From contig JADHNB010000004.1 in the NCBI GenBank assembly GCA_016779705.1, forward strand, positions 1 to 44,407: DNA of 44,407 nucleotides, written 5' to 3'. Below the pieces are notes generated by a model, which had not been told where the DNA came from, searched no databases, and worked only from the letters and a program-made list of their open reading frames with translations. Shown piece by piece: positions 5,640 to 40,047 of this stretch (positions are counted from its first letter, which is position 1; each line of letters starts with the position of its first letter). The stretch is from Poseidonia sp. (GTDB lineage Archaea > Thermoplasmatota > Poseidoniia > Poseidoniales > Poseidoniaceae). Position numbers and translations under genes: made by a program.

Positions 5640-5730
5640 GCGGCGTTTTCGCATCGGTGGCTTCATCAAGGGTTGCGTCAGCGGAAGGGTTGCTGTCCCC
5701 GGGGTTGGCCCCAGGAGAGTGGTGAGGACG

Positions 5731-7464
5731 ATGACCGAAAACGAGGCGAAGCGACCTGACGACGAGGACGAAGACGACGACTGGATGAAGTACGCCACCG
5801 CCAGTTTCGGCGAGACGGATTATTCCCTCTGGGACGACGTTGAGCCCGTTGAAGAGGACGAAGCCCATGCGGCGGAAGTGGCCATGCAGTTGGGCACCCA
5901 CGTCGAGGAAATTCCTCGCGCCCCCTCCGCGGCCGGTCACAAACATCTGGTTCGCGAGGGCACCTGCGACGCCTGTTTGGGTCGCGTCGGTGGCAAGCGT
6001 ATCTACGGCCAATCCTTCGAAGACGCCGGGGCTGGTGTTCGGGCCAGCGTGGTGGAGCAAGACCAGCACATGGCCAACGCTCGCAAGGCGGCCCCGCTGT
6101 GTCCGTTTTGCGAAAACTTGTTTGAAGAAGTCGACCTGTTGGCCGATATCATTCACGACGCCGTTGGACCCTATGACCTCACTCGGCTCCAGTTGGGCGC
6201 TCGATTTCCGAAGGACCAAACGGACACGGAGGAAGACCTTCGAAAGCGCTTGGGCGCTGGCGGTTCTGAACCCTTGAAATCGGCCCTCGTCGACCAGATT
6301 GGCGCCCGACTCAAGGACCGTTTGGACGGGGTCGCGATGGTTAACGACAAGCCCGACATTCTGGCGCTCATCGACGTGTTAACGCTCACCGTTGAATTGG
6401 ACGTGCGAGCGGTCTACGTGTACGGGCGCTACCGAAAATTGGAGCGCGGCATTCCCCAGACCCGTTGGCCTTGCCGAGCCTGCAAAGGACGCGGGTGCGA
6501 GCGCTGCGACCAAACGGGGCTGCAATACAAACGCAGCGTCCAAGACCTCGTGGGCAACCCGATGTTGGCGATCTTTGAGGGGACCGAGCACGCCTTCCAC
6601 GGCATGGGTCGTGAGGACATCGACGTTCGGTGTCTGGGACGGGGTCGTCCCTTCGTGTTGGAAATCAAGGAGCCAAAAAAGCGGGCGTTCAACGCCGAGA
6701 AGTTAGCGGAAATCATCAACGAAGCCGCCAACGGCTCGGTGGAGGTGTCGTCCATCCGCCCTTCGAGCCGAAGCGAAGTGGTGCGCATCAAGGACACGCC
6801 CGCCGAGAAATCCTACACGATTCGTTTCACCATTGAGCCGATGAGCGAAGCCGAATACGCCGTGCTCACCGCCCCGGTGGACATGACGAAGGAGGACGTG
6901 CAGGAACGCAGCAAGAAGCGACGGCGACAGCGTCGCGGCGACAAGGATGAGGACCGAACCAAGCCGCTGGCCACGCCCATCGACGTGCCCGCCACCGGTC
7001 CTAGCGAAGCGGAACTCAAGAGCATGAAGAAACCCGAATTGGTGGCCCTTTGCGAGACCCACGGGCTTGCCAAGACGGGGACGAAGGACGAATTGATTCA
7101 ACGCATCGTGGAAGCCTTGCCCCCTGCTCCGGCGATGTTGGACCTGCCCGACGACGAGACCATCCTCAAGGTCATCGAGGGCTTGAACGGCATCAAGCTG
7201 GCCCAGCGCACGCCCGACCGGGTGGCGCACCGTCGCTCCGACCTCATCCGTAAGCGGACCGTGTTTGAAGCCCACACGCCCTTCATCGAAATCAACGAGG
7301 ACGGGCAGCGGGAAATCGAATTCACCCTGCGTTGCGAATCGGGGACCTACGTCAAAGAAACGGTGCACGGCGACAACGGCCGCACCCAACCTTGCGTGGC
7401 AGCGCTCATCAAAGCCAAGTGCAACGTCCTCTGGTTGGACGTGGGTGACATCCACGCCGATTGA
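5731..7464 (+). CDS. pus10: tRNA pseudouridine(54/55) synthase Pus10 with inserted SAP domain
   Basis: CDACLGR and CPFC Zn ligands, YGRYRKLERGIPQTRWPC, HGMGREDIDVR catalytic motif, ESGTYVKE..HGDNGRT.P. Lies upstream of rpl21e. Confidence 0.95.
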   Translation: MTENEAKRPDDEDEDDDWMKYATASFGETDYSLWDDVEPVEEDEAHAAEVAMQLGTHVEEIPRAPSAAGHKHLVREGTCDACLGRVGGKRIYGQSFEDAGAGVRASVVEQDQHMANARKAAPLCPFCENLFEEVDLLADIIHDAVGPYDLTRLQLGARFPKDQTDTEEDLRKRLGAGGSEPLKSALVDQIGARLKDRLDGVAMVNDKPDILALIDVLTLTVELDVRAVYVYGRYRKLERGIPQTRWPCRACKGRGCERCDQTGLQYKRSVQDLVGNPMLAIFEGTEHAFHGMGREDIDVRCLGRGRPFVLEIKEPKKRAFNAEKLAEIINEAANGSVEVSSIRPSSRSEVVRIKDTPAEKSYTIRFTIEPMSEAEYAVLTAPVDMTKEDVQERSKKRRRQRRGDKDEDRTKPLATPIDVPATGPSEAELKSMKKPELVALCETHGLAKTGTKDELIQRIVEALPPAPAMLDLPDDETILKVIEGLNGIKLAQRTPDRVAHRRSDLIRKRTVFEAHTPFIEINEDGQREIEFTLRCESGTYVKETVHGDNGRTQPCVAALIKAKCNVLWLDVGDIHAD

Positions 7465-23780: not shown

Positions 23781-26700
23781 TCAGTCCTCATCAGACGTTC
23801 GCTTCACGGCCCGACGCTTGACGGGCGCCTTGCGGGGTGCCGGTCGACGACCAACGGCTCGACGGACAGGCTTCTTCGTTGCCTCATCGTCGTCATCATC
23901 GTCGTCGTCATCTGCGTCGTCGTCGTCATCGTCGTCGTCGTCGTCATCGTCGTCATCCGGTTCCTCATCCTTCTTCTTGCGGCGGCGTTCTTTACGCTGA
24001 ACAATGTTGATGGCGAAGGGGTCGTCATCGTCCTCTTTTGGAGCCGATTTCGCCTCCTCCTTCTTTTCCTCGTTTTCGGCAGGGGCTGCGGCGGCACCGG
24101 TTCCGGTGACGGCGTCCATGTCAAGGTCTTGGCTGGTGCCAATGAATTCCGACATCCACGATTCATCGTCTTCATCATCGTCGCCCCGCTTCTTCTTCTT
24201 TGGCCCCGACATGCCCACTTGGATGATCATCAAGGAAACGACGATGGCCAAGAGGTTCACCACAGCGATGACCCACACGATCACGTACGGCGGGTCGGCA
24301 AAGCCTGGCGTGATGGTCTCGGGTTCCACCGGAGGCTTGAGGTCCTCCTCGTAATTGCAGACGGTGGTCCCGTCCAAGCGGTTTCGGCAGAAATCCACGA
24401 TGAATTCCACGCGCTTCTGAACTTCGTTGCCGGCACCGTCGGTGGCTCGTACGGTGATGGCGTGCTTGCCGGCCTCAAAGTTCCCGGCGGTCACCTCCAT
24501 GTTGGCGGACAAGGAGCGGTTGTTGCCTTCCAAGTCGGTGATGCCGGTCAAGTCGGCCCAAGGCGTGGACACGGGCGAACCCGTCAAGCCGCCGTAGTGG
24601 TAGGTGAACCGGTACTGGAACGAGGTGATGACAACGTCGTCGGTGGCGCCCGCCAGCACGTTGATTCGGTTACCGTAGAGGTACTTCGAGCCGTCAGAAG
24701 CCGGCGTGGGCGAGAAGATGTTCACCACGGGGAGTTGGGCATCGATGGAGAGGTGTCCCCAGGATTGGACAACCACGTTGCTGGACTCGTCTTCCATGGT
24801 AACCCGAACGACCATGTCGCCCGCATCGGTGTTGGCGAGGATGCTGAAATCGTAGGTGTAAAGTGGCCCGATGTTGGGGTTGTTGCGGTTGTCGTTGAGC
24901 ACCGCCAGCGGTTCTTCGTCGTTGGTCAGAACGCCGCCGGTCAAGGTGGTGATGTTGATGGTGGGGGTGGTGCCGAGGTCCTCGTTGACCTGGACGCGGA
25001 GGCTGTATTGTCCGGCCACCAGCGTGGTGCTGTCATACGGAGCACCGTCACCATCCACCACGGTCAGGGTGGCGTTGGGCAGGAGCGTGTCCTCAGCGAC
25101 CTTGAAGGCGTTTCCACCAAAGCCAGCAAAGATTTCACCGTTGAAATTGCCCCATTCGTCGGTGATGGTCACAGCGTACCACACGTTTCGGTCAACATCG
25201 CTGGGGATGGTGAACTCACGGGTGATGGTATCGCCGGTTTCCACGGTGGTTTCGATGGTGTCAAGCACCGATTCCCATCCGTCCGATTCAATGGTGGACA
25301 AGTCGTTCTCATCCTCACCAAAGGGCGCCCCGTAATGGCGCCAAATGGCGTATGTTTCGTTGGCTTCGTCCTCGTTAAACCACTCGAGGCTCACGAGGTT
25401 CATCGAACCGATGGAATAGGCGTTCTTGATCCGGGGAGGATTGGGAGCCAAGGTGTCTTCAAACGGCACTTGGAAATAATTCTGAATGAGGTTGGTGTAG
25501 TGATAGGTCCCGTTAACGTTGCCATAAAGGGCTTCAGACGTGACCCAATAGAAGGAGTTCGTCCGGTACACATCGGCGGGGACTTCGGCGTCGAAGTAAC
25601 CAACGCCGTCGCTCACGGTTCCCAAATAAATGAGGGTCTCGTTTTCAACGAACTGACCGGTGTTGACGCGGTAGGTGGAATACCAAACGTGGTAGATCTC
25701 ACCTTCAATGCCCAGCTGGTCGTTCCAGGTGACGCGGGTGGTGCGGTCACCGATGAATTCAGCGTGGACGTTGGTTGGCTCGGCGACCCAACCGTAGAAG
25801 GCGTTCTCCTCGATGGCGTTGGTGCAAGAATCACCGGTGGTGTCGGTGTTGATGACGCCGGTGGCGTCCACCGTCACCACGCAGTAGTACGAATAGCCGA
25901 GGAAGCCTTGCGGAACCTGGACTTGGTAGGAGTTGATGCCTTCCAGAATGCCAGACACGACCAGTTCAACGTCGTTGCGCAAGACCGTGACAAAGGGTTG
26001 GTCCGAGCGGTAGACGCGATAGGTTTCACCCGTTTCGGCGGCGACATCGCCCCAACTGATGTTGGTGTACCCCGTGCCATCGAGTGGGTTGGGCACGAAT
26101 TCCGCCGAAAGCAGGATGGGTTGGTCAGGAGGATTGTTGTCTTCGGTCACCGGACCGACCGTGTTCTGGCCTACGAACCGAAGGTCCTCGTAATCTTGCC
26201 CGGCGCCAAACCAATTTGGTAGGTAGTACGTGATGGAATAGTAACTCTCCTGTTGGGTGCTGGGCGGAATGTCAACGACGTAGGACGTGTTGGTGGCGTC
26301 CACCACGGCGATGGGTGTTGCGGTGATGGGCAGGAACACGCCGTTGCTGCGGTCAATGGGGTAAGACGTCTGCCAAATCCGAATTTGCAAGGCATCGGGG
26401 CCAGTCGTGGGGTGGACCGCCTGGATGGAGTTGTAATTCAACCAGTTCAGCGTGGTTTGGCTCGTTGTAGGGTCAAAAAGAGCCGAGATGATGAAGGGCG
26501 TTTGAACCGGCTGGGTGATTTCCTGAACCGGCGTGTAGAGGTGCGACCCGTTGAAGAGGAATTCAGCGGCTTCCGTACCGTTGGACAACGAGGTCGTGAT
26601 GGCGTAGTAAAACGAGCCGTTGGTGCCCGGGGAGACGGGATATTCCACGATGTGTCCCGGATGGGCGTTTTCGTCACAGTTCATCGGGTTGCCACCGGCC

Positions 26701-27035
26701 GATCCCGAATCGCAGGCCGCCACCGTCATGAAGGGCGTCAACGAAGCGAGGTTTGAAGCGTTGATGATGGAGGTGTGGCGGTAGACGTTGTAGGTGGCGC
26801 TGAACAAGGCGTTGAGCACGTTGATGTTGGTGGATTCCAGATTCGTCCACGTGATGGTGGTGGTTTCCGTGGCGACATCAAAGGTGGCGTTGATGTGTTG
26901 CGCTTGCAAGTTGGAGGGTGTGCCGAGGTTTGCATCGGCCGCTGAGGGGGTGACCGGCGCCAAGGCGAGCAGCATCACCGCAACGAGAAAGACGGCGCGC
27001 AAAGTTCCGTTTTGTTCAGCCGTAGGACTACCCAT
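23781..27035 (-). CDS. Large cell-surface protein: signal peptide, about 5 FN3-like and Ig-like domains, C-terminal TM, charged tail
   Basis: Repeated xxxW...Y.(V/I)(Y/W)...YY.(I/V)T pattern, GKHAITVRATDGAGN Ig motif, many N-x-S/T sequons. Confidence 0.85.
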   Translation of the reverse strand: MGSPTAEQNGTLRAVFLVAVMLLALAPVTPSAADANLGTPSNLQAQHINATFDVATETTTITWTNLESTNINVLNALFSATYNVYRHTSIINASNLASLTPFMTVAACDSGSAGGNPMNCDENAHPGHIVEYPVSPGTNGSFYYAITTSLSNGTEAAEFLFNGSHLYTPVQEITQPVQTPFIISALFDPTTSQTTLNWLNYNSIQAVHPTTGPDALQIRIWQTSYPIDRSNGVFLPITATPIAVVDATNTSYVVDIPPSTQQESYYSITYYLPNWFGAGQDYEDLRFVGQNTVGPVTEDNNPPDQPILLSAEFVPNPLDGTGYTNISWGDVAAETGETYRVYRSDQPFVTVLRNDVELVVSGILEGINSYQVQVPQGFLGYSYYCVVTVDATGVINTDTTGDSCTNAIEENAFYGWVAEPTNVHAEFIGDRTTRVTWNDQLGIEGEIYHVWYSTYRVNTGQFVENETLIYLGTVSDGVGYFDAEVPADVYRTNSFYWVTSEALYGNVNGTYHYTNLIQNYFQVPFEDTLAPNPPRIKNAYSIGSMNLVSLEWFNEDEANETYAIWRHYGAPFGEDENDLSTIESDGWESVLDTIETTVETGDTITREFTIPSDVDRNVWYAVTITDEWGNFNGEIFAGFGGNAFKVAEDTLLPNATLTVVDGDGAPYDSTTLVAGQYSLRVQVNEDLGTTPTINITTLTGGVLTNDEEPLAVLNDNRNNPNIGPLYTYDFSILANTDAGDMVVRVTMEDESSNVVVQSWGHLSIDAQLPVVNIFSPTPASDGSKYLYGNRINVLAGATDDVVITSFQYRFTYHYGGLTGSPVSTPWADLTGITDLEGNNRSLSANMEVTAGNFEAGKHAITVRATDGAGNEVQKRVEFIVDFCRNRLDGTTVCNYEEDLKPPVEPETITPGFADPPYVIVWVIAVVNLLAIVVSLMIIQVGMSGPKKKKRGDDDEDDESWMSEFIGTSQDLDMDAVTGTGAAAAPAENEEKKEEAKSAPKEDDDDPFAINIVQRKERRRKKKDEEPDDDDDDDDDDDDDDADDDDDDDDDEATKKPVRRAVGRRPAPRKAPVKRRAVKRTSDED
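23886..23957 (-). repeat. Imperfect (GAY)n trinucleotide tract encoding D14-A-D9
   Basis: 24 codons read directly: 23 GAC/GAT and one GCA. Confidence 0.95.
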
Positions 27036-27122
27036 CAACGCATATGTAGCCTTCGTCCGTTATGACTATGTCGCTTTGAGGGTGTCAAAAATCCCGATAC
27101 ACGGCCGTTTTTGAGGTCGCCA

Positions 27123-35634: not shown

Positions 35635-36000
35635 ATGTCCCGCTCCTACGACGCCCGTTGGGTCAGCATCAAGGGGGCCCAAGAACGGAAATGGTGGATT
35701 CGAGCCAAGGCCAAAATTGACACGGGAGCCAAGCGTTGCTCCATTGACCAAGGCCTCGCTGAAGCCTTGGGATTGCCCGTCGTGGGCGAAGTCAAGGTTC
35801 GAAACGCCATGGGAAGCCAGGAGCGAAACGTCGTGTTGGCCAACGTTCGCGTGGGACGCATCACCTACAAAGTTGAGATGACTGTGGCCGACCGGAGCCA
35901 GTTGAAATGCCCCATGCTGTTGGGCAAAACCTTCCTCGATGAATTGGCCAAGCAACCGCTGAAACCCAACCGAAAAGGCGGCGTGCCTCAGTTCGTTTGA
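35635..36000 (+). CDS. Retropepsin-like aspartic protease (RimK/LysX-associated family)
   Basis: AKIDTGAKRCSID and ADRSQLKCPMLLGKTFL. Confidence 0.85.
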   Translation: MSRSYDARWVSIKGAQERKWWIRAKAKIDTGAKRCSIDQGLAEALGLPVVGEVKVRNAMGSQERNVVLANVRVGRITYKVEMTVADRSQLKCPMLLGKTFLDELAKQPLKPNRKGGVPQFV

Positions 36001-39000
36001 GAGCCAAGCCACGGCTTCAACGTTCGGTTGTTCTTGGTGACGCCAAAGCCAAACCGCTCTTCGATGGCCCGGTCAAGCAACGTGAAATCGCCGTCCATCG
36101 TGGCGACCAGCACGGCGCCGATATCGGGCAACGGCAACGAGGAAAGGTGCATGGCAAGCCGGTAGATGTCAAGATCGGTGGACTCGGGATAGATGGCTTG
36201 GCCTTCGAGTTCGGTTCGGACGGTGACGGAACGCAATTCCTTGAGTTGCGTGAGCTCCTCAAACACCTCGCTGTGATGCAGGAGGAACGCTTCAAGCGCT
36301 TGGGAGGACTCGGGAACATCGGCCAACATTTCGCTGGTCGGCGTCCACGTGGTGAACTCGTTGAGCACGTCCTTCACCAATTCACTCATGACCTCCGAGT
36401 TGAGGGTTTGTTCGATGCTTGCCATGTCGATCATTGCCCCCTTGAACCGATGCATCAAGCGTTGGTCCTTGGCGATCAAGCGGAGTTCACCCCGAACGTC
36501 GTCAGGGATCATCAAATGGAGACGCTTCGCTTTGGCGTGGTGAAGCAAAATGTGGTGGAACCGATTCGAACCCATCATCGTCAAATTGGTTTCAAAGATG
36601 AGGTTCATGCGCTGGAACATCTTCTCCACCAAGGCGTCGACGAGGACGTTCGTGTCCATGATCACCAAAGGCTTGAGCGAAAGGTTGTGGAGGAAACGAC
36701 GCTTCGAGGTGGGAATCTCGTCTTTGTACATCGAAAACAAGGACTGCTCCACCATCGAAAGGCGCTTGAGGGACGTGATGGAAAATTTCGGTGAATTTTG
36801 AGCTCGTTCCAAGTACATCAAGCCCTCGAAGGCGCCGTCTTCGGCGGCGTTCTTGGCGATCTCGTACACTTCGTCAAGCGAGGGAGACAGGCTCATCATG
36901 GCTTGTCGGAATTGATGTTCGAACTGGGTCCGAGTGCGGCGCAGGTCCCGACTGATGTGGGTTGAGGCAGCCGTCACCCGTCCAAGGAACGGCTCTGGAG
37001 GCAACAAATGGGCTTGCTCGAAGGGATAATTGCGGAGCAAATCCAATTCTTCTTCGTTGTACACCGTCTTGGTGCGTTCAACAAGGTTGCCCTCCACGTC
37101 TTCTTCGGTGACGGTGATGCGTTGTTGAACGTGCTTACGAATCAATCGAGCGGCTTCATTGGTGTCCTCGGAGGCTTTGTGACACACTCGGAGGTAGAGT
37201 TTGAACCGCTCCGTGATGGCGGTTTTGAGAGAGGGCACCTTGTCGAGCAGGTCCACCGCTTCGGCCCATGACGTGGCGTGGGCGTAATGAATCAAGGATT
37301 TTCGATAAAGGGCCAGCGGGAGAGCCAGGGCGGAGTCGTCATCGTCGGATTCCACCGCCACGTCGGAGCGTTCGGCGGTTTCGCCTCGGACCTTGGTGAA
37401 CACTTCAGCCGCTCGGGAGTATTCCCGGGCTGAATTGAGCTCATCCCCGTTGGCCGCATAGAGGGCGGCACGGGTCAGCGGCGCCCAAGGAGAAAGCGGG
37501 TCGTGTTGTTGGTACCACATCACCAGATTGGGGAGCCCCAAATCGTGTTCCATCACGAGATGTGACACGGAACTCACCAGTCGGAGCGGGAAGCCGGACC
37601 GTGCGACAAGGTCGTCGAGTTGGGTCGCACGCTCAGGGTTGGCCATGCCGATGCTGTACGCCTGCAGGTGACCGTTCACGGACAAGGTCATGATCATCAC
37701 CTCAAACAAGCGACGTTCGACGGCCGACAGGTCAAGGTCATCAAGGCCGTTGCTCAGATTGTTCAGATGCGTTTCACTGACCACACCGCCTTCAGCAATC
37801 GCCCGGCTGATGGGTGAGAAAGCCTTCAACGCACTCTTGTTCAACACCTCGACCAGTTCAGGCGTTTCCTTGTAAATGCCTTCCATCAACAACAGAAGGT
37901 GCTCGGCCACGGGCGAGAGGACTTCAGGAAGTTCGGCACCGTGAATGGCTTGCAAGGCCTGACGACGGCTGTTGAAAATGTTCGAGCGATGCTTGGCACC
38001 CACCGAGGAGGGCGCCAACTGAGCGATCAAGAGCGCCGCATACGGATGCTGCATGGCCAGCATGCTGTCGTTGGAAAACACGGTCGCCAAGCGTTCGATG
38101 TCCAGGGCATCGAGCAGAAGGGTGAGCACCGATGATTTGATCTCGTCCCAAAAAGACCCGGGTTCATCGCACAGGCGGCGTGCAGCGGTCAACCGAAGCG
38201 AGGCCTCCAGTTCAGGAGTTTGAACGACACGGAGCAGCGCCTGCTCGTCCACGTCGTTCATAAAACCCATCAACCAAGCGTTGGCTCGATCATCGTTCAT
38301 GGAAACGACCAGCGGCAGCAAATCGGTCACGTCAGAAGAACCGTCCAAGCGCAGGCCACCGAGAACCTCCATGGCTCCATCTTGCTCGCCTTCTCGGAGC
38401 AGGGCGGTCAGTCGCCACCACGTCAATCGGTCTCTACCTTCGTGCACGTTGGCGGCCTTGAGCAGCGCAAGTCCCTTTTCCAGTTCAGCCGAAGGAGACG
38501 CTTCGGCCTCGGCGGGCGCATGTTGCCAAGCCAGCGTTTGGAGAGCGACCGTGAGCGAATCGTCTTTCGAACTCGCCACAAGGTTGGACCAATCGTTGAT
38601 TTGCCCCAATTGCAGCGCTTGGAAATTCATCAGTGCAGCGCAAAGGTCTGCGTCTTCGCCTTCGCACGCCTTCACGACGGAAGCCGGAGGCTCATCCCGG
38701 TTGTGAACATGAAGCAGATAGGTCACGAAGGCCAGCGGTCCTTTGAGTTGAAGCAACGAGTCGTCCAAGGTGACGGACCGGCCGCCCGTGAGTTGCTTGG
38801 TCGCCTTCTGCAACGCCACCTTGGTATCGGGGTCGTCCACCCCGGCGGTGGCCAATTTCAAGACGGTGGCCAGCGCTTCTCGATCTCGTGGGTCGACCCA
38901 GAAAAATTCGGTTGAGAGTTGGCTTTTGGTAGTGGACTTGGCAACCTTCGCTTTGGGGAACGCCAAAAACTGGCCCAACAGGGGCGTCTTTTCACCGATC

Positions 39001-39449
39001 AAATGCCATACCGGATGGACGCCTTTGGCCATGCAGGTCTCTCGGAGCGTCGTTTCGTTGACGTTCCATGCCTCGTCCCAATCATCAGCGTTCAACTGTT
39101 TGTGAATCAAGAGGGTGGCCAACTGGTAGGCGGTGGTGTAGGGAGCCTCGTTGACGATCTCCTCGGGTTTATGCAGCCAGGTCATGTACGACGGCCCGGA
39201 ACTCCGACCGGTCCGCCGAGCACGTCCGCGAGGGCGAGCCATGGCGGGTCGTCGCTGATTGGAACCGTCATCATCGTCTTCGGCGGCTGGTGGCTCCAAC
39301 TCATGGGCTGCAACGCACAACACCGCCATGAGCGGTTTGTCAAACATTTTTGAGGCCGCTTCTCGGTTCATCGTGGCGACCCGCGCATTACCCGCCATGG
39401 GCTTGGAAAACGCTGCCTTGAGACAGGTTTCCATGTGCGTTTCGTCCAA
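35988..39449 (-). CDS. Large alpha-helical protein with C-terminal PIN domain
   Basis: LVIMDTNVLVD, V.GEL, ESTDLDIY, LVATMDGDF. Start uncertain (39449 or 39434). Confidence 0.8.
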   Translation of the reverse strand: MDETHMETCLKAAFSKPMAGNARVATMNREAASKMFDKPLMAVLCVAAHELEPPAAEDDDDGSNQRRPAMARPRGRARRTGRSSGPSYMTWLHKPEEIVNEAPYTTAYQLATLLIHKQLNADDWDEAWNVNETTLRETCMAKGVHPVWHLIGEKTPLLGQFLAFPKAKVAKSTTKSQLSTEFFWVDPRDREALATVLKLATAGVDDPDTKVALQKATKQLTGGRSVTLDDSLLQLKGPLAFVTYLLHVHNRDEPPASVVKACEGEDADLCAALMNFQALQLGQINDWSNLVASSKDDSLTVALQTLAWQHAPAEAEASPSAELEKGLALLKAANVHEGRDRLTWWRLTALLREGEQDGAMEVLGGLRLDGSSDVTDLLPLVVSMNDDRANAWLMGFMNDVDEQALLRVVQTPELEASLRLTAARRLCDEPGSFWDEIKSSVLTLLLDALDIERLATVFSNDSMLAMQHPYAALLIAQLAPSSVGAKHRSNIFNSRRQALQAIHGAELPEVLSPVAEHLLLLMEGIYKETPELVEVLNKSALKAFSPISRAIAEGGVVSETHLNNLSNGLDDLDLSAVERRLFEVMIMTLSVNGHLQAYSIGMANPERATQLDDLVARSGFPLRLVSSVSHLVMEHDLGLPNLVMWYQQHDPLSPWAPLTRAALYAANGDELNSAREYSRAAEVFTKVRGETAERSDVAVESDDDDSALALPLALYRKSLIHYAHATSWAEAVDLLDKVPSLKTAITERFKLYLRVCHKASEDTNEAARLIRKHVQQRITVTEEDVEGNLVERTKTVYNEEELDLLRNYPFEQAHLLPPEPFLGRVTAASTHISRDLRRTRTQFEHQFRQAMMSLSPSLDEVYEIAKNAAEDGAFEGLMYLERAQNSPKFSITSLKRLSMVEQSLFSMYKDEIPTSKRRFLHNLSLKPLVIMDTNVLVDALVEKMFQRMNLIFETNLTMMGSNRFHHILLHHAKAKRLHLMIPDDVRGELRLIAKDQRLMHRFKGAMIDMASIEQTLNSEVMSELVKDVLNEFTTWTPTSEMLADVPESSQALEAFLLHHSEVFEELTQLKELRSVTVRTELEGQAIYPESTDLDIYRLAMHLSSLPLPDIGAVLVATMDGDFTLLDRAIEERFGFGVTKNNRTLKPWLGSQTN

Positions 39450-39576
39450 CCCTTCATCCCCTCGTTTCCCCCCACGACGAGAGCCCTTTCAATCCACCGA
39501 TGAGCGGACATGGCCGATTTTTCGTCAAAACACATACTTCCTTGAACCAACGACCTCTCCGCCGCGACGAGACTCC

Positions 39577-40047
39577 ATGGACATCGTGCCGCTGACCGTC
39601 CTGCTCTTGCACCCCATTCTCGCCTCAGGCCTGGTCGCTTGGGTGTGGTGGCAGTACGCATGGCGAAAGAAGTCGTACGAACTCAAAGGCGCTGAGCGAG
39701 CGGCCCATTTGGCCCGCCATGAGGCGAACGGCGAACGCCTGCTTTGGGCCACCGGAGGCGTCATCCTGCTGGCCTTTGCCGCTCGGGGGTTCACCGGTTG
39801 GTACAACGGCGAGGACGTGGTGGCGGCCCTCGTCCCCCAATCGCTTCACGGTTTCATGGGTCCGGTGGGCTTTGCCCTGATGGTGGTGATGACGAGGTAC
39901 GGTAAACAGGCTCGAGCGCAGCGGGAAGCAGGAGAATCCTTCGCCACGACCAAACTCAAGCACGGACGAGCCGCTGACCTGATCGTTTACCTCGTGTTCA
40001 TCCACGCCTTCTTGGGCTTCATCTACACCTTCGACGTGCTCGTGTGA
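39577..40047 (+). CDS. Four-TM His-rich membrane protein (DUF4079 / cytochrome b561-like)
   Basis: LLHP, RHE..G, SLHG, KHG and IHAFLG, with His at TM boundaries. Confidence 0.7.
   Translation: MDIVPLTVLLLHPILASGLVAWVWWQYAWRKKSYELKGAERAAHLARHEANGERLLWATGGVILLAFAARGFTGWYNGEDVVAALVPQSLHGFMGPVGFALMVVMTRYGKQARAQREAGESFATTKLKHGRAADLIVYLVFIHAFLGFIYTFDVLV

Follow-up and report, generated by a model that had tools for sequence, protein, structure and literature searches.

A giant helical-scaffold protein with a predicted C-terminal PIN nuclease domain in the archaeal order Poseidoniales

The window, by which we mean the whole stretch of DNA that was analysed, comprises 44,407 nucleotides of Poseidonia sp. 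(assembly GCA_016779705.1, contig JADHNB010000004.1, positions 1 to 44,407) from a genome of 1.5 Mb that is 68% complete, and the gene in question, referred to here as the giant PIN gene, lies at 35988..39449 on its reverse strand. It is the longest open reading frame (ORF) of the region, with 1153 codons and a stop, and yields a stop-free translation of 1153 amino acids (aa). A preliminary description of this DNA had proposed that the ORF encodes a giant helical protein ending in a PIN nuclease domain, and the gene itself is confirmed by homologues throughout the order; it is real and coding beyond chance, since full-length, stop-free matches are present in 181 of 201 genomes sampled across Poseidoniales, almost all of them in one copy and matching the whole query. 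The start codon is TTG, with an alternative ATG at 39434, five codons in. Genus-level homologues use the ATG while more distant ones open with 'MQET..L..CL', consistent with the TTG start, and the start position is thus uncertain by 5 residues.

The AlphaFold2 model of the whole protein (35-sequence alignment) has a mean predicted local distance difference test score (pLDDT) of 83.0 and a predicted template modelling score (pTM) of 0.65, and DSSP assigns helix throughout residues 1 to about 920, except for a beta-hairpin at residues 775-797, bearing out the N-terminal helical region of about 920 aa proposed earlier. The protein begins with a helical cap, residues 1-50 (39300..39449, reverse strand, as are all other parts of the gene), in which helices 3-48 are modelled with pLDDT of about 78-85. 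A predicted disordered acidic tract and then an Arg-rich motif follow at residues 57-85 (EDDDDGSNQRRPAMARPRGRARRTGRSSG; 39195..39281; pLDDT <50); the family consensus of this loop is R...RRGGR, and at least 90% of the 35 sequences keep R78 and R79, in agreement with the Arg-rich loop noted in the preliminary description. From residue 88 to 920 the chain is nearly all helical, the exceptions being the hairpin and an acidic variable linker at residues 693-704, which has pLDDT <50 and falls where most homologues have an indel.

The alpha-solenoid body occupies residues 88-692 (37374..39188), all helix by DSSP and with pLDDT mostly 80-95, and carries a conserved motif LRxxCxxxGVHPVW at residues 135-148 (39006-39047), in which R136 and G143 are invariant and C139, H145 and W148 at least 90% conserved (35 sequences). 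A second conserved motif, YPxE....LPxEPFxGRVxAA at residues 808-828 (36966..37028), precedes the PIN domain; its Y808, L816, P817, G823 and R824 are invariant in the same 35 sequences. Between residues 652 and 840 (36930..37496), a stretch that includes both the linker and the hairpin, the model aligns with TPR domains at Z 8-9.7 in structural searches with VIA. The segment that had been quoted as TPR-like, RAALYAANGDELNSAREYSRAA, corresponds to residues 660-681 and does lie in this stretch, but the Z scores are within the background for helical models, so that 'TPR-like' is a fair description of the predicted structure rather than a family assignment. Foldseek with the whole model returned only generic solenoids (CRM1, RRP12, Naa15, Ski3) at E of about 1e-3 and a template modelling (TM) score of about 0.1.

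The predicted PIN domain spans residues 926-1151 (35997..36674) and is identified by its modelled fold together with its invariant acidic residues. Residues 902-1153 were folded alone from 17 sequences, 11 of them from genomes of two families of the order and 6 natural fragments, giving an AlphaFold2 model with pLDDT 83.3 and pTM 0.84. Strands are modelled at residues 926-931, 978-980, 1079-1086, 1110-1116 and 1136-1138, with helices between them, and the C-terminus is predicted to adopt the three-layer alpha/beta/alpha PIN fold with a central parallel sheet. A VIA search with this model against 48,161 PDB representatives found 10 chains at Z of at least 8 and 41 at Z of at least 5, the top match being the VapC of Rickettsia felis VapBC2 (3zvk_A, Z 9.7, root-mean-square deviation (rmsd) 3.1 Å, 134 of 134 residues aligned); 14 of the best 20 entries are titled VapC, VapBC, FitAB or toxin-antitoxin, and the PIN domains of SMG6/EST1A (6.8), Rrp44, Nob1 (6.7), Utp23, Utp24, HARP (5.8) and SMG5 (5.4) are also among those at Z of at least 5, where PIN entries predominate. 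With the whole-protein model, residues 927-1142 match 6a7v_A at Z 10.1 (rmsd 2.8 Å, 132 residues aligned). PIN entries also recur among weak Foldseek matches, the best of them 3zvk_C (probability 0.90, TM on target 0.67). The fold prediction is a confident one, and the modelled PIN core superposes on VapC-type PINs. The domain contains a predicted helical insert of about 80 residues (995-1075; 36225..36467) between the helix that bears E988 and the strand before E1089; helices at 996-1073 are present in both models, and only about 134 of the 252 domain residues align to VapC. Nowhere is the domain less conserved than in this insert, with a mean top-residue frequency of 0.36 for residues 1001-1050.

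The candidate catalytic residues are D932 (36654-36656), E988 (36486-36488), E1089 and D1092 (36174-36185), and D1119 and D1121 (36087-36095). In the AlphaFold2 model D932-T933-N934 stands just after beta1 and E988 in the helix after beta2, while P1088-E1089-x-x-D1092 starts the helix before beta4 and D1119-x-D1121-F1122 follows beta4. The acidic set expected of the PIN-like superfamily, Asp after beta1, Glu in the region of the next helix, Asp close to beta3 and Asp after beta4, is thereby represented in sequence. Among 141 full-length homologues (at least 1000 aa), D932-T933-N934, E1089, D1092, D1119 and D1121 are unchanged in all 141 and E988 in 140. The preliminary description had named the same D(TN), E, D and D.D residues as retained and had staked the PIN assignment both on their conservation and on the fold of the C-terminus; the residues proved invariant apart from the single change at E988, a PIN fold is what is predicted, and the claim of a C-terminal PIN domain stands. 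Weak Pfam PIN matches recur across members, PF01850 (PIN) in 5 of the 17 domain sequences (best 7.8e-4), PIN_12 in 3 (best 1.1e-4) and PIN_3 in 1, which we count as a weak sequence-level point toward the PIN assignment. A homodimer prediction for the PIN domain gave a score of 0.00 and a mark of 0.42; it was run without controls, and we take it as evidence neither way.

Outside its own order the protein has no relatives that we could find. A word-indexed search of 5.8 billion proteins gave 135 homologues, nearly all of 1050-1170 aa, at 92-100% query coverage and 37-96% identity; no Pfam domain is precomputed for any of them, and where they are named at all it is as 'hypothetical protein' of Poseidoniales, Poseidoniaceae or 'Euryarchaeota archaeon' metagenome-assembled genomes (MAGs). 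An exhaustive phmmer search of 1.84 billion cluster representatives gave 159 proteins at E 0.001 or better, all of them family members or fragments, with full-length members reaching down to 24-25% identity. No significant match came from Pfam, NCBIfam, PADLOC or the PDB sequences, whether the query was the single protein or a profile; one PDB profile match at <1e-3 (3jqh, a repeat-containing lectin neck) was discarded, being a short low-complexity match in four weak copies. Atlas look-ups returned the family's own clusters at 0.97-0.98 and otherwise sub-threshold TPR or PIN-TPR leads. A profile search for stand-alone PIN relatives among proteins of 92-534 aa gave 104 matches, all of them high-scoring, high-identity pieces of this family, mostly on short contigs with a few on long ones. 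Some of these pieces carry the JGI names 'LabA/DUF88 family' or 'PAS domain-containing', neither of which was reproduced by Pfam scans. Nothing relevant to the protein family was found in the literature, as judged from listings, and its earlier characterization as an undescribed helical-scaffold protein with a C-terminal PIN domain holds: no curated family was found either, and the acidic set is intact.

Within the order, the marine group II archaea, the gene is close to universal. By family it is present in 98 of 99 genomes of f1, both genomes of f2 and 80 of 99 genomes of f3, and in 56 of 61 high-quality genomes. In a phylum-wide profile search of 301 genomes 59 were matched, all of them f1 (42/42) or f3 (16/21), with none of eight genomes matched in the sister family f4 of the same class and none in the other families searched; this was a stricter first look in which weak matches may be missed. 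An absence reported here means that no match turned up in the genomes searched, and many of these are incomplete MAGs. To judge from these matches, the family is confined to Poseidoniales among the genomes searched. Identity follows taxonomy, at 56-83% within a genus, 33-42% within a family and 27-33% to the other family. DNA nearly identical to 35988-39449 (65-99% of sampled words) was also detected in 20 sequencing runs from 12 studies, comprising aquatic, estuary, seawater and freshwater metagenomes, which suggests that this population inhabits not only the sea but also brackish to fresh water.

Two genera lack the gene. No match was found in 14 genomes of genus g19, two of g12 and one of g9, and a PIN-only profile detected nothing at E up to 1 in five g19 and g12 genomes. 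The locus was examined in three genomes of g19 and one of g12. In the g12 genome and two of those from g19, a nitronate-monooxygenase-like gene and a small membrane-protein gene stand side by side, about 45 bp apart; the remaining g19 genome has a different arrangement there and holds neither the giant PIN gene nor the membrane-protein gene. Because these flanks abut exactly where sister genera carry the gene, it has been cleanly deleted at the syntenic site in g19 and g12. In a tree of a neighbouring protein of about 350 aa (a single gene, 13 rows, midpoint root) g19 nests among gene-bearing genera and g12 falls outside that clade (support 100/99), and for this reason the two losses are suggested to be independent.

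In two families the giant PIN gene, a near-core gene with one copy per genome, keeps a syntenic place among housekeeping genes. In f1 its neighbours are IDH and OsmC downstream, a divergent gene for a predicted 156-aa membrane protein upstream, and FtsZ, with NUDIX, cobalamin adenosyltransferase and SPOUT methyltransferase genes farther away; in f3 the genes found downstream of it belong to acyl-CoA metabolism. The loci compared share no conserved operon partner. The membrane-protein gene (39577..40047, forward strand) is a separate gene that adjoins the giant PIN gene in both families; its product is 62% identical to its counterpart in another locus (L013) and resembles Pfam Ni_hydr_CYTB (cytochrome b561-like) at E 0.0013, below the cut-off. 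A two-gene system of the two was rejected, the membrane-protein gene persisting where the PIN gene is deleted. The preliminary description had found no small antitoxin gene alongside, and this is borne out, the upstream gene being the divergent one just described. A co-directional 52-aa ORF at 39454-39612 was considered as an antitoxin and rejected, its frame not being conserved even within the genus and being absent in other genera; no small conserved co-directional ORF was found upstream in the loci compared.

Between IDH and the giant PIN gene lies a 121-127-aa ORF (35635-36000, forward strand) that is convergent with the PIN gene and overlaps its last 13 nt; it has retropepsin-like aspartyl-protease matches in Pfam (Zn_protease 3.9e-12, gag-asp_proteas 8.7e-10), and in the other genera examined IDH either adjoins the PIN gene directly or is separated from it by a different ORF. 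The conserved protein of about 350 aa used for the loss tree (L013:10012-11064, reverse strand; G000:C59:1111-2079) has no Pfam family; in both families most genera encode it at the second position upstream of the PIN gene, although in the window genome it is on another contig. Elsewhere in the window, a second giant ORF of 1085 aa (23781-27038, reverse strand) likewise lacks a Pfam family at E 1e-5 or better, and the local GC skew of 0.22 over 26001-27000, within it, is unusually high. A Pus10 pseudouridine synthase gene (5719-7464, forward strand) carries an unusual addition, a SAP domain (E 3.2e-10, residues 433-467) after the best-matching Pus10_C stretch.

The VapC and FitB toxins (PDB 3zvk, 6a7v, 4chg and 2bsq) are the closest known structures to the modelled domain, at Z 9.7-10.1 and rmsd 2.8-3.2 Å over 131-134 residues, which is the whole VapC chain. 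The toxins and the modelled domain share four acidic positions and, following beta1, the D-T-N start motif, with 10-19% identity in the structural alignments. The arrangements differ, however: VapC stands alone at about 130 aa with an upstream VapB, whereas the PIN here makes up the final fifth of 1153 aa, has an 80-residue helical insert, comes without an antitoxin, is single-copy and near-core, and fails the PF01850 cut-off. A VapBC module was rejected on these grounds, complete homologues being about 1050-1170 aa, with no antitoxin and with fixed single-copy inheritance. No PF01850-type PIN was found elsewhere in five Poseidoniales genomes checked, save for a weak signal at the Nob1 locus.

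The layout of the protein, a long helical N-terminal region and then a C-terminal PIN, is that of eukaryotic SMG5 and SMG6, as the preliminary description had pointed out. The parallel stands for the layout but not beyond it: the SMG6 PIN (2dok_A, Z 6.8) and SMG5 PIN (2hwy_B, Z 5.4) are weaker fold matches than VapC (9.7), neither single-sequence nor profile PDB searches matched an SMG protein and the exhaustive search gave the family only, and no SMG5/6/7 N-terminal 14-3-3-like/TPR domain is among the listed Foldseek and VIA matches, in which single domains of so long a model can be missed. Since only one archaeal order has the family, the likeness is likely convergent and architectural only. 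The accompanying view that prokaryotic PIN proteins are mostly VapC toxins is incomplete, as Pfam already holds bacterial fusions of PIN and TPR parts, PF20698 (PIN-TPR-GreABC) and PF24407. These are the nearest named clusters by protein-language-model features, at an Atlas score of 0.78 that is within chance range; the name of PF20698 suggests an N-terminal PIN in those bacterial clusters, whereas the archaeal protein has a C-terminal one. Neither model was matched by hmmscan at E up to 10 with the protein and four pieces of it, or at E up to 0.1 with 35 members, HMMER filters dropping most matches above E of about 0.1. Membership of the PIN-TPR-GreABC family was rejected, there being no match to the model and the Atlas lead being at chance level.

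Among housekeeping PINs, archaeal Nob1 (PIN_6 plus zinc ribbon; 2lcq, Z 6.7), the 16S rRNA 3'-end endonuclease, differs in being a separate gene of about 165-240 aa, and replacement of Nob1 was rejected: of 41 Poseidoniales genomes 40 carry PIN_6, some of them in genera without the giant PIN gene. PRORP joins PPR repeats to an NYN domain, that is, helical repeats to a PIN-like metallonuclease, and the PIN_5 protein HARP is among the fold matches (7f3e_E, Z 5.8 in VIA; 8kd9 and 7og5 in Foldseek), more weakly than VapC. A protein-only RNase P was nonetheless rejected, RNase P RNA being above the Rfam cut-off in five of five genomes, the window genome included, as was a substitute for a missing exosome, genes for the exosome RNase PH subunits being present in five of five. 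RNB (RNase R-type) genes were found in three of five genomes searched, all of f1 (G000, G003 and G056), and in neither of the two from f3 (G027 and G023); the RNA-decay toolkit may differ between these families.

We propose, with moderate confidence, that the giant protein is an order-specific, vertically inherited PIN endonuclease tethered to a scaffold, with a housekeeping or accessory function, that probably acts on RNA. By analogy with the PINs of VapC, Nob1 and SMG6, which bind divalent metal and cut RNA, the acidic cluster would bind Mg2+ or Mn2+ and cleave phosphodiester bonds, most likely of RNA. The solenoid may position the nuclease on a protein or ribonucleoprotein (RNP) partner, or gate access to it, and the conserved basic RRGGR loop, with the acidic tract before it, may contact nucleic acid or act as an internal regulator. 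The physiological role would be one of accessory housekeeping, whether in RNA processing, turnover or quality control. RNA surveillance, one of the two roles put forward in the preliminary description, may also apply. The gene appears to be neither a toxin-antitoxin module nor a mobile defence gene, and is dispensable in some lineages, since two genera have deleted it cleanly. A bolder version, which we think improbable, is that the protein is an independently evolved archaeal, SMG6-type RNA-surveillance endonuclease of marine group II, in which the solenoid would sit on the ribosome or another RNP, the Arg loop grip RNA and the PIN cut aberrant or surplus transcripts.

Several points weigh against this proposal. 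The curated PIN sequence models give no significant match, all falling below the Pfam cut-offs (for the window protein, PIN_3 at E 0.15-0.2 and TIGR00305 at E 0.07), and by this measure the domain family falls outside current curated models; nor does Foldseek with the PIN domain model have a PDB match at E 0.001 or better. That the acidic residues cluster as one site we infer from secondary-structure positions only. RNA rather than DNA as the substrate is assumed by analogy, and genomic context gives no substrate clue. No vacant RNA-processing role is apparent, because RNase P RNA, Nob1 and the exosome RNase PH subunits are present. The gene is not essential, two genera wholly lacking it. It also diverges rapidly: between the same genome pairs the giant PIN protein is 27-39% identical, compared with 82-90% for IDH, 78-81% for FtsZ and 45-71% for OsmC, and such divergence, which fits a solenoid scaffold, fits an arms-race gene as well and keeps a conflict role alive.

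That conflict role could be that of a fixed immunity effector, in which the solenoid or TPR-like part senses a viral or stress signal and frees the PIN to degrade host or viral RNA in the style of abortive infection; such an effector would resemble bacterial TPR-PIN conflict proteins. The fast divergence relative to neighbouring genes, the clean and probably independent losses in two genera, the VapC-type toxins as nearest structural matches and the Atlas lead, within chance, to the bacterial PF20698 clusters would all suit it. We nevertheless regard it as unlikely, as we do the ligand-triggered antiviral defence offered in the preliminary description, which the evidence here does not support: the gene is near-core and single-copy at a fixed position among housekeeping genes in two families, its identity tracks taxonomy, and there is no sign of transfer beyond Poseidoniales. 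There are no defence-type neighbours, no defence family among the PADLOC-DB 2.0 models matched the protein at E up to 1, PF20698 has no match to it even at E 10, and none of 17 pattern matches on viral contigs was confirmed as a relative. A defence role is therefore disfavoured.

The PIN could instead be held by its scaffold as a structure-specific DNA nuclease for repair or recombination, acting on flaps or junctions. Some PIN-like domains do cut such structures, and the superfamily includes DNA nucleases of the FEN1/EXO1 type; the structural matches include 5f4h_A (Z 5.7), an archaeal RuvB-like helicase that carries a PIN at its N-terminus, and exonuclease VII and DNA methylase genes are present in the same window, though 17-23 kb distant. 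However, the RNA-cleaving VapC-type PINs match clearly better (Z 8-10 against 5.7), the match lists hold no FEN or XPG entries and no DNA-repair genes are conserved alongside, so that we consider this improbable too. A domesticated VapC whose fused N-terminal part took over the antitoxin function, making a single-chain toxin-antitoxin, would explain a PIN core most like VapC, and the N-terminal acidic tract and basic loop could mask the active site; but we found no VapB-like gene or domain and no local VapBC pool, the five genomes checked having no PF01850-type PIN apart from the Nob1 locus, and with a single-copy, vertically inherited gene encoding about 1150 aa in all members this seems highly improbable. 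A non-catalytic scaffold, whose PIN would serve only to bind RNA or protein in the manner of SMG5 or Utp23, both of which are among the structural matches, has precedent in known inactive PIN domains that serve in this way, but those have lost their acidic residues, and with the set kept in 141 of 141 homologues (E988 in 140) despite 27-39% overall identity it is scarcely credible.

The scaffold-tethered endonuclease that we favour bears on archaea that are among the most abundant in the plankton of the surface ocean and are still uncultured. In Poseidoniales, a protein of 1150 residues that is found in nine of ten genomes, is unannotated and has neither a Pfam family nor a homologue outside the order is a sizeable blank, and the intact PIN on a helical scaffold, which the models reasonably establish, gives it a concrete activity to examine. 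What is new here is an architecture and a sequence family limited to one order; its catalytic domain is one of the known PIN superfamily. Beside SMG6 and PRORP, the protein would be a third independent case in which helical repeats are combined with a PIN-like nuclease, and the two genera without the gene are natural knock-outs through which its partners and substrate could be sought by comparison.

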